This document shows positions 1-6,000 of a stretch of DNA of 64,000 bases, one piece after another (within the stretch, counting starts at the first letter, position 1; every line of letters begins with the position of its first letter). The position numbers were made by a program. The DNA is from Escherichia coli O157:H7 (GTDB taxonomy: Bacteria > Pseudomonadota > Gammaproteobacteria > Enterobacterales > Enterobacteriaceae). Where the stretch lies: assembly GCF_013167455.1 (NCBI RefSeq), contig NZ_CP038328.1, one strand, 5' to 3'.

Positions 1-3000
1 AAACCAGTGAGAATAAGAGGTTATCCAGGTCAGATTTTTATGTGGCTCGCCTTGTTTCTTATCTTGCAACCAGGGCAGCAAGGAAACGCCATCCAGCTTA
101 AGGTCTTTTGGAATGCTGATATCGGCTGCATCAAGAGCTGTCGGGTAGAAATCCATTGCGGAAATCAGCTTGTCATAATTACCGGGTTGAAGTTTTCCTT
201 TCCACCACATAAACATTGGGGTGTGAGTACCGCCAGGATAGGTCTGACTCTTATAGCCTTTTTGCGCCCCGTTCAGCGGCAGAGGACCATCGATAACCGC
301 ACCATTATCGGAGGTAAAGAGAATAATTGTATTGTCATACTGTCCGTTTTTCTTCAGTTGTTCGAGAATGCGTTTTACACCCTGATCAACAGAATAAACG
401 GAAGCGTAGTAGTTATCTGCTGTTTGACTACCGGTATTAAATTGCTTCTGATATTGCTCCGGTGCAGGATTATCATTTGGCAGGTGCGGAGCATTATAAG
501 CCAGGTAAAGCATAAAAGGCTGGTCAAGTGTTTTGGCACGATCAACAACGCCAATTGCCTCATCGGTTAACTGATCGCTGATATAACCTTTTGCGGGGAC
601 ACGTTCACGATTCTTGAACAGTGAAGGGGAGTTGTAATATGCCGTTCCTGCAGCGTGGAATCCCATAAAGTAATCAAAGCCACGGTTTTGCGGTTGCCAT
701 TCTTCCGCAGAAAATGTGGTGAAGTTGTCATGATAGTCACGTGTTTGTTTATCTTCCGGTACCGGCACATTACTGATTTTTGACAAGTGCCATTTACCTA
801 CTGCTGCAGTGTAATAACCATGATTCTGGAATAATTCAGGCAAGAAAGTTTCTGTTAGCGGAATACCATCCTGAGCATCAGTATTGGAATAGACACCAAA
901 GCGGGCGGGCGCTCGACCGGTCATTATTGCGGCGCGGGAGGGGCCGGAAACACCGTGCGCCACATAGCCGTTAGTAAAACGTACGCCTTCATCCATTAAT
1001 GAAAGGAGCGTCGGCGTTGATTTTTGCGCAGCTTCAATGGCTTTATCTATCCCTATTTTGTAGGTATCGACAACTTCACGATTTTCCATTGTTTTTGGGT
1101 CAAAAGATCCCTTATCAAAAGGAAGTTGTCCATAACCAAGATCATCCATGGTCAGTACGATAATATTTGGCTTTCCTTTGGTACTGTATTCAGTCGGCGT
1201 AAAGTCTGAGAAAGCAACGTTTGTTTTGGTTGCTTTCAGCTTTACATCATCTGCCGCATGAGCAGCAAATGCAGCCATACCAGATGCCAGTATCAAAGAT
1301 ATCGAGGTACTTACGACACTTTTCTTTAATGCAGACTTCATAAATGTTCCTCTTCTTATTGTACTTAATTCCAAAGTAATTTTACGAAGAGAAATAAGTG
1401 GATGTAAGTGAAGTTAGTCACATAAAGAGATAGCAGATTTAGCTAAAAAAAGGGAAATAACAGTCCATAAAGCGTTGACATTACTTTTTATTCTACTAAG
1501 TAATTTCTCGACGATAAACAATTAATCTATTGATATTTAATAAATTATTGTATTTTACTAACAAAATGCCGAATTGAGATCATAAATAATCATGCAACAA
1601 GTTATGCAAATGCATAAATATGTGATGAATGTCACTTATTTATTTCAATAAATATATCGCCTAAAAACAACGCGGGGCAGGGAATGACTGCCCCATTTTT
1701 AATTTTTACGTAGGGTGCGTGGTTGACTACTCGTTAGCAAATAATCAAATAGCTAAAGCATTCATCGTGTTGCCCGTATTCATACCCGTGTGCCTTTGAC
1801 AACGGTACTCCTTAGAAACTCTCTTTGGACTGTTGCCGAAATGTTTGCGGAACGCATAAATAAAATAAGATGTACTGGCATAACCACATTGTTCGGCAAT
1901 TTTATTGACTGAACCTTCTACGCGTATCAAATTTTTTGCGTGCTGCATTCTGGCATCTAAAAGAATCTGTGAGAATGTCGTTTGCTCTTGCTTTAGTTTT
2001 TTCTTCAACAGGCTTTCACTGATGTACAGGCAGTCACAAATATCTTTCAGCTTCCATGGGTGCGCCAGCTTCATGTTGACAATATTTCTCACTTTCCCCG
2101 AAACGGATAGCACACCGTTAGTTAATAGTGTAATGAAACCTTTGCATGTGGCAAAAATAGACAGGCAAGAAAAAAGCAAAAGTTCTGAAAAATTATGATG
2201 ATTGCGTTCTTCCGAGTTGAGATAAGCAATCATTTCATTAAGCAATCCAGTCGGTACATTCGAAGCACGTAAAAACTTCGCAGGAACAGGCATCGTCACT
2301 GTCTGGATGTTAGTGCATTGTAGATATTTTTTAATGGTATTTTCATTAAATCCGATTTCTTTAAAATGCCGCTCATAAGGTTCAAAATGCGTACGAACAG
2401 CGTTATCTACCATCAGGATCTCGCCGTCAGAGAAGGCGTAATCTTTATCTAAAATGTTAGCGTTGAAGGCATGATGAATAAATATAACAGAACAAACGAG
2501 CGACATTTTATCTCCTTAAAACAATAAAGTTTTATCGATACTTTTTTAACATTTCATATTTATAATTTGCTGTTTATTTTCAGTCTTGCAAACTATTGAC
2601 AATGAAATGTGTAAGATCTCTTGCAATGCGACCCATTTCTGAAATACCCAGCTGATCAATTGCCGAAAAAATGGCTATCAACGTAAGGGTCAGTAATAAG
2701 ATAACCACAATTACAGACATGATTTCTTTATAGTTGTCTCTTTGCGTGATTTTGTTTTTCACTGTGGTCGCATGCATTTCAAATATGTTTATTTAGCGGA
2801 TAACGTTAAAAATCGTTAATCAGTATGCTTAATATAACAGGCTTGAGAAAAGAGGAAATAGGACTGGTGCTTCAGTACTGAGCGGAGTTTCTTACAGCTG
2901 TAGGCAGAAGTTTATATCTTATAGTATGTAGTTTAATTTAATCCATGTGAGCAAATTGCGCGATAATAATCAATGAGGAATTCTTCTGCTGTGCGGATGA

Positions 3001-6000
3001 CAGCAGAAGAAATGAGAAGAGGCATTAATTTGATGGTTCTAATTCAACCGGAATACTTTTATAGCCAGGAATGCCACTTAATGGATCGTGGTTATCAAGT
3101 GTTAGCATGTGATTCGATTCTGGAAAATAGGTCACCAGTGAGCGGTCAGCCATAGGGTAAATGACCACTTTTAATCTATCCATGCGGCGTGAGCTGCGCT
3201 TACCGTCTGGCGTAAGCGCAATAAGATTAACTCTTTCGCCGTTTTTTACACGGCAAATTTTAGCTTGTTTAGCACTCATAAAGACCACATCTCGTTGACC
3301 GAATACCCCTCGATAGCGATCATCCATACCATAAATCGTCGTGTTGTACTGATCGTGGCTGCGTACTGTCGCCATGACCAGCTTACTGTTAAACGCTGAA
3401 GAGGGATCTTCTAACAGCCCTTTGCTGGTAATGAAATTAGCCTTACCTGACGGCGTCATCCAGCGCCTTTCAGCAGCTGCATTTATCAGGTGAAAACCAC
3501 CGGGATGACGGATGCGTTGGTTATAGTCGGCGAACTCTGGCAGCACAGCTTCAATGTCATTGCGAATGCGATCATAATCTTCCACCAGATACTCCCAGGC
3601 TACCACGCTCTGGGGTAGTGTTGCCTGCGCGATTCCCGCGACCACAGCACACTCTGATTTCAGCATTACACCGGCGGGTTTTAACACGCCACGCGAGGCA
3701 TGAATCATCGACATTGAATCCTCAACGGTTACCGCCTGCGCACCGCTTTTTTGCATGTCAATCTCGCTACGTCCCAGAACCGGCAGAATATAGCTATGCC
3801 GTGCGGTCAGCAGATGAGAGCGGTTAAGCTTAGTGGCTACGTGTACCGCCAAATCTAATTGCGTTAACGGTACAGCGCTCGCTTCCCGATCTGGCATTGC
3901 CAGTGCAAAGTTGCCCCCCATGCAGATCAATGCTCGAGCCTGCCCCGTACATATTGCTTGCATGCTGGCAATTGCAGCATGTCCAGGTACATGAGGTGGG
4001 GTGAAGCCATAGCGCTCACCCAGGCGAGCCAGAAACTCTACAGACGGTTTCTCGGTGATACCGACGGTTCGGTCGCCCTGTACATTAGAGTGGCCACGTA
4101 GTGGGCAGATACCCGCACCAGGCTTGCCAATGTTACCTTTCATCAACAGCAGATTGACCAGTTGCTGTACATTCTGGGTACCATGTTCGTGCTGAGTGAT
4201 CCCCATTCCGTAACAGATAATGGTTCGTTCGGCAGCGGCATATGCATCAGCCAGTTCGGCGATTTGTGTCTGACTTAGTCCAGAAATACGTTCGATATCT
4301 TTCCACTCGGAATTGAGCACGTCACGGCGTAGCTCGTCAAAGCCGACGGTATGCGTTTGAATAAATTCGTCATCCAGCAATGAGGGCCGACCTGCGGCGC
4401 TTGCAGCATCATCGCGCTCAATTAACAGGCGCATCATCCCCTTGAGCAACGCCATATCACCACCAATGCGCACGTTATAGTAGGCACTGGCCAACTGAGT
4501 CTCAGAGTTCGTCAGCATTTCAAACGGGTTTTGCGGTGCGGTAAATCGCTCCAGGCCACGTTCCTGTAGAGGATTGATGGCGATCATTTTCGCTCCCCGT
4601 TTCACTAAAGCGCGCAACGAAGTCAGCATGCGAGGGTGGTTTGTACCAGGGTTATGCCCAATGCAAATGACTAAATCGCACTTCTCAAAGTCTTCCAGCA
4701 ACACGGTCCCTTTACCTACACCGATACTCGCTGCCAAACCCACGCTTGTCGGTTCATGGCACATGTTGGAGCAGTCGGGAAAGTTATTGCTCCCGTATTC
4801 ACGGGCAAAAAGCTGATAAAGAAAGGCAGCTTCATTGGAAGTGCGGCCCGAAGTATAGAATTCAACCTGATTGGGATCACTATAGCTTTGAAGGCGTGCG
4901 CCAATTTCGTCGAAAGCTTGTTGCCAGCTTAATGGCTTGTAACAGTCGCTGACAGCATCATATTTCAAAGGCTGAGTGAGACGTCCCGCAGCCTCAAGCT
5001 CGTGATCTCCCCAGGTAAGTAATGATTGAACCGTATTCTGAGCAAAGAAAGAGGCATTTACCTGCTTATCCGTGACTTCCCAGGCGATTGCTTTTGCGCC
5101 GTTTTCACAAATGTCGAATGACGCACTGTGCTTAGGATCTGGCCATGCACAACCCGGACAGTCAAAGCCCTCTGGCTTATTCATGTCAAACATGGCAATA
5201 ACATCCTGGCGTATATCCATCTGCTTACGTACTGCATTCGCTACGGATTTAACAGCACCCCAACCACCGGCAGCACCCTGGTAGGATTCAATTTTTTTCT
5301 TCATCTACTTATCCTGTGTGGAAATGAATTATTAGGATTTGTAATAGCGATGATGCACAGTACATACAAAGGGATTATCGCCAACATGGATATATAAGAG
5401 TAGGGGACTACTCTCTTTCTATTTTTAATCTATTATCGTTAAACAATAGATTAAATACGATAAGGTAAGCATCATCTCTCATAGTGTTTAAATTAACATA
5501 TTTTTCAATATAAAAAATAAGACTCTGGCTTCAATTGTGCGCGGATTTTCTTACAAGTGTAGGATAATAGCCTTCACAAAATAATTATCCGCGCAATTTT
5601 CGTGAATGGAGCGCATAGACTAAGGTCAAAATCACAATTATTCATAGATAAAAGTGACACCAATGACTGACTGGACGGTTCCGGCTGAAACTTTGTTCCC
5701 TGTTTGTCCATAGGTTGCGCTTAAACCCAGAGGTACTTTGCTTTTATTTACTGTCCCCAGGGAGACATTTTCTCCCGTAGCCAGTATTTTTCCATTACGC
5801 ATCAGAGAGACACCCACTCCCGATGCTTTTGTTGCATCTGGTGCTGTGTTAGCAAACACTTGTCTAGCACTGTCAGTGGTAGTACCCGAAAGATAAAATG
5901 AGAGCTTTTGTTCGCTTGAGCAATATACGCCAAGGGGGATTTCTGCGCTTCCAGGAAAGTCCGGGAGATTCACGGTGACATTACGACTATCAACAGTGCA

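Follow-up and report, generated by a model that had tools for sequence, protein, structure and literature searches.

The ydeP and safA-ydeO promoters of this Escherichia coli O157:H7 genome each contain one motif that, judged from its sequence and from published work, is almost certainly the known 18-bp operator (EvgA box) at which a phosphorylated EvgA dimer would activate the two transcription units. EvgA binding and EvgA-dependent induction of these promoters are taken from the literature; the match to the EvgA consensus, its rank in a matrix search, the geometry of the ydeP promoter and the pattern of conservation were observed here, in a 64-kb stretch of DNA (the window). Both operators are already known, and the finding is not new to biology. 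What it provides is an O157:H7-type strain in which EvgA is wired to ydeP and safA-ydeO as in K-12, which supports the gene calls and the acid-resistance regulation expected in an enterohaemorrhagic background. A by-product is the consistent position of the box, near -74, at three mapped promoters.

EvgA boxes upstream of safA and ydeP

The stretch that encodes ydeO, safA and ydeP is 100% identical to annotated O157-type genomes, and the open reading frames together with that annotation confirm the calls of all three genes made in an earlier, sequence-only reading (Table 1). The start codons of ydeP and safA are at 5304 and 2777, respectively. Because both genes are encoded on the minus strand, the boxes count as upstream of them: both are intergenic, the safA box 112-129 nt and the ydeP box 244-261 nt ahead of the ATG of its gene.

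Table 1. Features of the ydeO-safA-ydeP locus, in window coordinates
Feature	Position	Strand	Sequence or description	Basis
ydeO	1745..2506	-	AraC-family acid-response regulator, 253 aa	ORF list and RefSeq annotation of identical genome
safA	2580..2777	-	two-component connector, 65 aa, first gene of safA-ydeO	ORF list and RefSeq annotation of identical genome
Predicted safA extended -10	2831..2839	-	TGtTATATT	ungapped register with ydeP element
Box-proximal conserved block, safA promoter	2856..2888	-	ACTCCGCTCAGTACTGAAGCACCAGTCCTATTT	likeness to ydeP promoter; identity in L011
EvgA box, safA-ydeO promoter	2889..2906		TTCTTACAGCTGTAGGCA; in gene direction TGCCTACAGCTGTAAGAA	consensus and matrix
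Hairpin right after ydeP stop codon	2981..3011	-	likely ydeP terminator	RNA fold
ydeP	3025..5304	-	putative oxidoreductase, acid resistance, 759 aa	ORF list and RefSeq annotation of identical genome
ydeP transcription start	5482	-	A on the minus strand; 178-nt leader	computed as 5304 + 178
ydeP extended -10	5490..5498	-	TGtTAATTT, hexamer at -13 to -8	read from sequence relative to mapped start
Box-proximal conserved block, ydeP promoter	5515..5547	-	AATCCGCGCACAATTGAAGCCAGAGTCTTATTT (-65 to -33)	likeness to safA promoter; identity in L011
EvgA box, ydeP promoter	5548..5565		TTCTTACAAGTGTAGGAT; in gene direction ATCCTACACTTGTAAGAA	consensus and matrix

The sequence-only reading had noted two near-identical 16-base motifs on the plus strand, TTCTTACAGCTGTAGG at 2889-2904 and TTCTTACAAGTGTAGG at 5548-5563. 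Both are real, and neither strand of the 64 kb holds any other exact match to TTCTTACANNTGTAGG; 100 dinucleotide-preserving shuffles gave no match to TTCTTACANNTGTAGG, so none is expected by chance. The same reading took the motifs for the EvgA half-site arranged as an imperfect inverted repeat. The arrangement stands, with one mismatch per site to the consensus TTCYTACANNTGTARGAA (TTCYTACA-NN-TGTARGAA), and the size of the unit is corrected from 16 to 18 bp: each extends into an imperfect palindrome of 18 bp (2889-2906 and 5548-5565), with the motif as its core. Allowing up to 3 mismatches, the consensus matches these two 18-mers and nothing else in the window. The gene-proximal half-site of the safA box is perfect. 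A repeat search of the window did not report the ydeP/safA box pair.

Might two matches to a short consensus arise by chance in AT-rich intergenic DNA? The 8-nt half-site alone does occur at chance frequency in the window (4 found vs 2.9 expected, no enrichment), which places the signal in the paired inverted arrangement. Chance is effectively refuted by the zero expectation for the full motif and by matrix scores above those of all 30 shuffled windows; it is also countered by the location of the two sites, which precede known EvgA targets at a common spacing.

The matrix scores draw on the K-12 regulon. A consensus search in K-12 found boxes upstream of emrK/evgA, frc (yfdW), yfdX (two boxes) and yegR, which covers all the other listed direct targets of EvgA, and these boxes are the same 18-bp palindrome as at ydeP and safA. 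A weight matrix trained solely on five of the K-12 boxes (emrK, frc, the two of yfdX, and yegR), with the window sites left out, ranks the ydeP box first (22.6 bits) and the safA box second (21.0 bits) in the 64 kb. Both scores are inside the range of the training boxes (18.5-25.4 bits) and above the best score over the 30 shuffled windows (19.1 bits); the next match in the window reaches 11.3 bits, about 10 bits below the two boxes. The 18-bp inverted repeat reportedly came out of a motif search by Masuda and Church in 2003 (Mol Microbiol 48:699), who are reported to have tested it by gel shift and mutation as well; the other primary paper on the K-12 ydeP and safA boxes is that of Itou et al. 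in 2009 (Biosci Biotechnol Biochem 73:870).

EvgA binds the ydeP, safA, yfdX, frc and yegR promoters (PMC8147483), with direct binding described at the safA-ydeO promoter (PMC9496106), ydeP listed as a direct target (PMC8174306) and the inverted repeats at yfdX and yfdW bound as well (PMC3720670). EvgS/EvgA is present in virtually every sequenced isolate (PMC5706723). The evgA gene is located outside the window; of 5426 complete E. coli genomes, 5398 have its region and 5397 have the ydeO-ydeP region. Consensus, regulon matrix ranking and the published EvgA-bound promoters together support the fit to known EvgAS control of the acid-resistance cluster that the sequence-only reading had proposed.

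The domains of EvgA are Response_reg and GerE, and several other E. coli regulators that recognise short inverted repeats have a GerE-type domain too. Sequence analysis does not reveal the protein bound at a site, and the palindromes could be read mainly by another regulator of the LuxR/NarL family (RcsB, for instance, with or without a partner), with EvgA dependence indirect or shared. We consider this very improbable: the motif is found at exactly the promoters that the literature names as EvgA-bound (PMC8147483), its distance from the start site is the same at three mapped promoters, and in the work of Johnson et al. the EvgA site turned up at no genes other than those whose control by EvgA was already known (PMC4283999).

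Architecture of the two promoters

The ydeP leader is 178 nt long in MG1655 and in EHEC, with a single transcription start site for the gene (EDL933 Cappable-seq Table S5, PMC10469882), and a published ydeP leader probe spans -178 to +10 (PMC11210196). The single EDL933 start is recorded in salt and M9 cultures and is absent from the acid-culture records. Given this leader, the ydeP box is at -83 to -66, centred at -74.5, a position that differs from the classical class I positions (-61.5, -71.5 and -82.5). Start sites from the same table place the centre of the yegR box at -72.5 or -74.5 and that of the proximal yfdX box at -75.5, so that the ydeP, yegR and proximal yfdX boxes share their distance from mapped start sites. 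The emrK/evgA, frc, yfdX and yegR promoters of K-12 all have a -10-like hexamer about 50-58 nt past the box.

Upstream of the mapped ydeP start is an extended -10; the sequence at the -35 position, TTTTTT, does not match a -35 element. An extended -10 that lacks a -35 match would leave the promoter silent in the absence of an activator. A sigma-70 scan had also offered TTGAAG-16-TATATT (5534..5507) as the ydeP promoter; we did not accept it as the main promoter, since the start mapped to 5482 is 18 nt further downstream and fits TGtTAATTT.

The predicted safA extended -10 stands in register with its ydeP counterpart, at +50 to +58 from the end of the box. A safA start site was not found in the start-site data examined; from the in-register -10 we infer a start near 2824-2826, corresponding to about 1,584,006-1,584,008 in K-12, a leader of about 47-49 nt and, with it, the position of the safA box relative to the start. 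Upstream of the safA box, the hairpin that follows the ydeP stop codon folds at -19.7 kcal/mol (z = -4.5; 0 of 200 shuffles fold equally well) and lies within the longest invariant run (columns 9-45) of an alignment of eight strains. Its U-tract is weak. The hairpin is likely the ydeP terminator, and would part the ydeP and safA-ydeO transcription units.

Conservation among strains and in a divergent Escherichia genome

The safA box varies only at its outermost base among eight E. coli strains, and variation in the ydeP box is limited to the 2-bp spacer and to position 2 from the outer end. None of the 12 core positions varies in the eight strains, all changes being in spacer or outer bases. 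This is the distribution expected if contact positions are conserved and the spacer is free to vary, but the comparison has no statistical power and is not significant (Fisher p = 0.11 and 0.28).

A scan of genome contigs with CCTACANNTGTAAGAAANTCCGC gave three loci: one in a divergent Escherichia genome that is about 85% identical (L011), and two on E. coli-like contigs in metagenome bins. In L011, 16 of 18 bases are kept in each box. The changes in the safA box are at the spacer and the outermost base, and over the two boxes together most changes affect the 2-bp spacer or the outer bases, with one core change, TGTA to CGTA. The CGTA form also occurs in the emrK box of K-12.

Conservation extends from the boxes toward the genes. 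L011 is 85% identical from the ydeP box to the start site and 76% identical from the safA box to the predicted start, in both cases gap-free. Beyond the boxes, identity is 50-55% with gaps (50% with gaps over the 60 nt beyond the safA box), i.e. the DNA there is scrambled, and each box is the upstream edge of a conserved promoter. The ydeP extended -10 is kept as TGcTAATTT; in the safA promoter the TATATT hexamer is kept, and the upstream TG reads TGc, as it does in the L011 ydeP promoter.

A block shared by the ydeP and safA promoters

The ydeP and safA promoters align, ungapped and in register, over a 49-nt block that includes the box (38/49 identical; local-alignment z = 8.8). The likeness extends 33 nt beyond the box and exceeds that of any other pair of EvgA promoters. 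Over the first 35 nt past the box, 24 positions are identical, a number reached by none of 200,000 shuffles. Within the block are CCGCnCA, TGAAG at -52 to -47 and AGTCYTATTT at -42 to -33. The other K-12 EvgA promoters lack the 49-nt block (pairwise z ≤ 4), and frc and yfdX have a different common element, cTCTCTGATT, at the corresponding offset.

So long an ungapped likeness, the strongest among the EvgA promoters, is what a duplicated ancestral promoter segment might leave behind, and the motifs could then resemble each other as relics without being a selected protein-binding site. Duplication is compatible with function, however, and unlinked promoters without the extended block have the box too. 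In addition, L011 retains box and promoter in both copies while the DNA beyond them is scrambled, which argues for selection rather than recent copying. We therefore regard a mere relic as highly improbable, and retain the reading of both motifs as EvgA operators.

It is possible, if rather doubtful, that the 33 nt separating the box from the -35 position, which ydeP and safA have in common in register and which L011 retains, are a second selected cis-element, undescribed to our knowledge. Such an element could be a docking surface for more EvgA subunits or for the alpha subunit of polymerase; it could also be the site of another regulator that tunes the ydeP and safA promoters jointly. The delimited conserved block is a usable target for a promoter-mutagenesis study.

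Proposed regulatory mechanism

EvgA would act here as the response regulator of the acid-sensing EvgS/EvgA phosphorelay, binding through its LuxR/GerE-type helix-turn-helix domain. One subunit probably reads each half of the palindrome, TTCYTACA, leaving the 2-bp spacer free to vary. The ydeP promoter would be a sigma-70 promoter with the box upstream of its extended -10, at which bound EvgA may recruit or stabilise RNA polymerase. How polymerase is contacted we infer from the geometry: at the ydeP distance, contact is most likely made through the C-terminal domain of the alpha subunit, or by more EvgA on the conserved stretch that separates the box from the -35 position. The safA-ydeO promoter appears to be an in-register copy of the ydeP layout, and on this basis mild acid sensed by EvgS is proposed to turn on YdeP, the PhoQ connector SafA and YdeO in parallel.

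Comparison with known systems

BvgA of Bordetella is a homologue of EvgA with sites in virulence promoters. In both cases a NarL/FixJ-family regulator activates a weak sigma-70 promoter by binding an inverted repeat of short half-sites that lies well upstream of -35. BvgA promoters combine a primary repeat with cooperative low-affinity sites down to -35, whereas the ydeP and safA promoters contain no second EvgA half-site of at least 5 bits between box and start site, a threshold below which weaker sites are possible. By their secondary sites, the two would not class as BvgA-type multi-dimer activator promoters.

The closest known systems are the EvgA boxes of K-12 ydeP and b1500(safA)-ydeO, which are the orthologous loci (K-12 coordinate = window coordinate + 1,581,182). 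The safA box is the same in K-12 base for base. The ydeP box is in the same position and differs by one spacer base and one outer base, TTCTTACAAGTGTAGGAT in the O157-type genome vs TTCTTACAGGTGTAGGCT in K-12. The outer base of the O157 form, which occurs in seven of the eight strains examined, brings that box closer to the consensus (1 mismatch) than the K-12 box (2 mismatches).

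EvgA boxes upstream of safA and ydeP

The sequence-only reading had placed two EvgA-box-like 16-nt motifs, TTCTTACAGCTGTAGG at 2889-2904 and TTCTTACAAGTGTAGG at 5548-5563 (+ strand), in the safA-ydeO and ydeP promoter regions, and this observation is confirmed. Across both strands of the whole window, TTCTTACANNTGTAGG matches exactly at these two sites only, and in none of 100 dinucleotide-preserving shuffles; allowing up to 2 mismatches returns the same two sites and no others in the window. The half-site TTCYTACA by itself occurs at chance level (4 seen in the window, 2.9 expected), so the signal lies in the paired inverted arrangement. 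The full 18-bp boxes fit the EvgA inverted repeat as proposed, with one mismatch each to TTCYTACANNTGTARGAA, and are the sole matches to it in the 64 kb with up to 3 mismatches. In the direction of transcription, both boxes have an imperfect half-site (TGCCTACA, ATCCTACA) gene-distally and a perfect one (TGTAAGAA) gene-proximally.

Gene coordinates were taken from the ORF list and the annotation of an identical genome, with which the earlier gene calls for ydeO, safA and ydeP agree. Because safA and ydeP are on the minus strand, both motifs are upstream of their genes, 112-129 nt from the safA ATG and 244-261 nt from the ydeP ATG. Directly after the ydeP stop codon, and upstream of the safA box, is a hairpin (2981-3011, minus; -19.7 kcal/mol, z = -4.5) with a weak U-tract, which falls within the longest invariant run of the eight-strain alignment and is probably the ydeP terminator. 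Placed there, it is consistent with ydeP and safA-ydeO being transcribed as two units, each with a box of its own.

Features of the safA-ydeP region and of K-12 EvgA boxes used for comparison
Feature	Coordinates	Strand	Sequence	Remark
ydeO	1745-2506	minus		
safA	2580-2777	minus		
ydeP	3025-5304	minus		
ydeQ	5638-6552	minus		
safA EvgA box, full 18 bp	2889-2906		TTCTTACAGCTGTAGGCA	16-nt motif + 2 bases at right
ydeP EvgA box, full 18 bp	5548-5565		TTCTTACAAGTGTAGGAT	16-nt motif + 2 bases at right
ydeP transcription start	5482	minus	A	from 178-nt leader
ydeP extended -10	5495..5490	minus	TAATTT	TGt precedes; start seven bases after
emrK-evgA intergenic, K-12			TTCTTACGCCTGTAGGAT	
frc upstream box, K-12			TTCTTACAACTGTAAGAA	perfect
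yfdX upstream, two boxes, K-12			GTCTTACAATTGTAGGAA and ATCTTACAGTTGTAGTTA	
yegR upstream box, K-12			TTCCTACATAAGTAGGAA	
ydeP box centre				-74.5; 178 nt leader, K-12 and EHEC
yegR box centre				-72.5; 43 nt, K-12 start
yegR box centre				-74.5; 41 nt, EHEC start
yfdX proximal box centre				-75.5; 31 nt, K-12 start

Match to other EvgA targets

A motif search by Masuda and Church in 2003 reportedly yielded an 18-bp inverted repeat upstream of directly regulated operons; EvgA is said to gel-shift those sequences, and repeat mutations at ydeP and b1500-ydeO to have reduced induction and acid resistance. Induction of yfdX and yfdWUVE has been attributed to EvgA bound to inverted repeats (PMC3720670, citing Masuda & Church 2003). 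Every gene known to be under direct EvgA control has an EvgA site, and none of the other genes with strong induction in an evgS-constitutive strain does (PMC4283999). The suggested EvgA control of both units is borne out by reports of direct regulation of emrKY and ydeP (PMC8174306) and direct EvgA binding at the safA-ydeO promoter (PMC9496106).

When K-12 regions of other operons described as directly targeted by EvgA were searched with the consensus, every region examined contained a match. A symmetrised weight matrix trained on the emrK, frc, yfdX (two) and yegR boxes only, without those of safA and ydeP, gave its two highest scores in the whole window to the ydeP box (22.6 bits) and the safA box (21.0 bits). 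The third match scored 11.3 bits, the top score across 30 shuffled windows was 19.1 bits, and the training boxes score 18.5-25.4 bits under their own matrix. The two K-12 yfdX boxes (L002, the yfdX/frc region, 13501-13556) are 38 bp apart, with centres at -75.5 and -113.5.

Promoter geometry

The ydeP start is listed at 178 nt before the ATG for MG1655 and EHEC alike, with one start site recorded for the gene in EDL933 (Table S5, EDL933 Cappable-seq, PMC10469882); an independent source used a leader probe from -178 to +10 (PMC11210196). The -35 position reads TTTTTT, and the box spans -83 to -66. With all start sites taken from the same table (PMC10469882), box centres at ydeP, yegR and yfdX fall between -72.5 and -75.5, the same box distance at three mapped EvgA-dependent promoters. 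The safA promoter carries TGtTATATT at 2839..2831, at an offset from its box identical to that in ydeP, and by this geometry safA would start near 2824-2826.

A generic promoter scan proposed TTGAAG-16-TATATT as the ydeP promoter; it was rejected, as it differs from the mapped one. The -10 and start-site regions of ydeP (5475-5496, minus) and K-12 yegR (L010, 4338-4358) have in common TTA(T)ATTTAAACACTA(T)GAGAG (local-alignment z = 4.0). The predicted safA leader contains CGTTAAaaatCGTTAA at 2806-2823, a direct repeat of 10-nt period, and the ydeP leader contains ATCGTTAA at 5435-5457, a related member of the same repeat family (D2). The safA-leader repeat might be connected with PhoP, which is reported to repress safA.

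A promoter block shared by ydeP and safA

The box and the 33 nt gene-ward of it form an ungapped 49-nt block (5515-5563 at ydeP, 2856-2904 at safA, minus) with 38 of 49 positions identical and a local-alignment z of 8.8, against 4 or less for all other EvgA promoter pairs. In the first 35 nt past the box, 24 are identical, a number that none of 200,000 shuffles reached, nor any other 35-mer of the window. Common sub-elements are CCGCnCA, TGAAG and AGTCYTATTT; the emrK and yegR promoters have AGTCCT or AATCCT at the corresponding offset. The block could stem from promoter duplication, serve as a second functional element, or do both. At the offset of AGTCYTATTT, the K-12 frc and yfdX promoters (L002 12480-12500, 13470-13495) have cTCTCTGATT.

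Conservation

Several O157:H7-type chromosomes match window 1500-6500 at 100% identity, and of 5426 complete E. coli genomes, 5397 have the ydeO-ydeP region in some version. Among eight E. coli strains (89-100% identity in the two intergenic spacers), the 12 core box positions are invariant; in the safA box the outermost base alone differs between strains, and in the ydeP box only the 2-bp spacer (AG, GG or GA, + strand) and one outer base do. Divergence among these strains is too low for significance (p = 0.11 and 0.28).

A pattern scan of species-representative genomes gave a more divergent locus (L011, a contig labelled E. coli SCPM-O-B-8794), ~85% identical across ydeO-ydeP with ydeO, safA and ydeP intact. 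Each box there retains 16 of 18 bases. Of the four changes, three are in spacers or the outermost base, and the fourth, TGTA to CGTA, gives a form present also in the K-12 emrK box. CCGCnCA, TGAAG and AGTCYTATTT are likewise fixed. Identity to the window is only 50-55%, gapped, in the 60 nt past each box, but 76-85%, ungapped, from box to start site, so the conserved promoter extends upstream as far as the box.

In the same contig (5794-6427), DNA upstream of the ydeP promoter is joined directly to the match of window ~12863 onward; relative to window 5673-12863, SCPM-O-B-8794 thus lacks the ydeQ-ydeT fimbrial cluster beside ydeP. Two contigs from metagenome bins, JARKOR010000108.1 (a 'Candidatus Nanosynbacter' MAG) and one from UMGS1713, match window DNA at 98% identity (98.4% across 7.5 kb in the case of the former); the Nanosynbacter contig almost certainly stems from E. 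coli DNA contaminating that bin.

Proposed activation and comparison with known systems

EvgA comprises a receiver and a GerE/LuxR-type DNA-binding domain, and regulators of this type act as dimers on inverted repeats. In the most likely scheme, EvgS would be activated by mild acid and phosphorylate EvgA, one dimer of which would occupy each 18-bp box, steps that are established in the K-12 literature. From about -74, EvgA would then aid sigma-70 polymerase at an extended -10 promoter without a -35 element, a contact of which we found no description in the literature that could be consulted. Centred at -74.5, the bound activator has no direct access to sigma region 4 and would have to work via the alpha C-terminal domain or further EvgA subunits. 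Between box and start site, scanning for half-sites gave no second EvgA site of at least 5 bits, so a BvgA-like array at the ydeP and safA promoters is unsupported by sequence, although weaker sites (<5 bits) are possible.

EvgA operators at ydeP and safA-ydeO are already known, and the evidence supports the two motifs being these operators, in this case in a genome of O157 type. K-12 has the same bases in its safA box. The ydeP box (5548-5565) differs from its K-12 counterpart (L003, 6731-6748) at one spacer and one outer base, the latter being C (GGCT) in K-12 and A (GGAT) in seven of eight strains; with one mismatch to the consensus rather than two, the O157-type box has the outer base nearer consensus.
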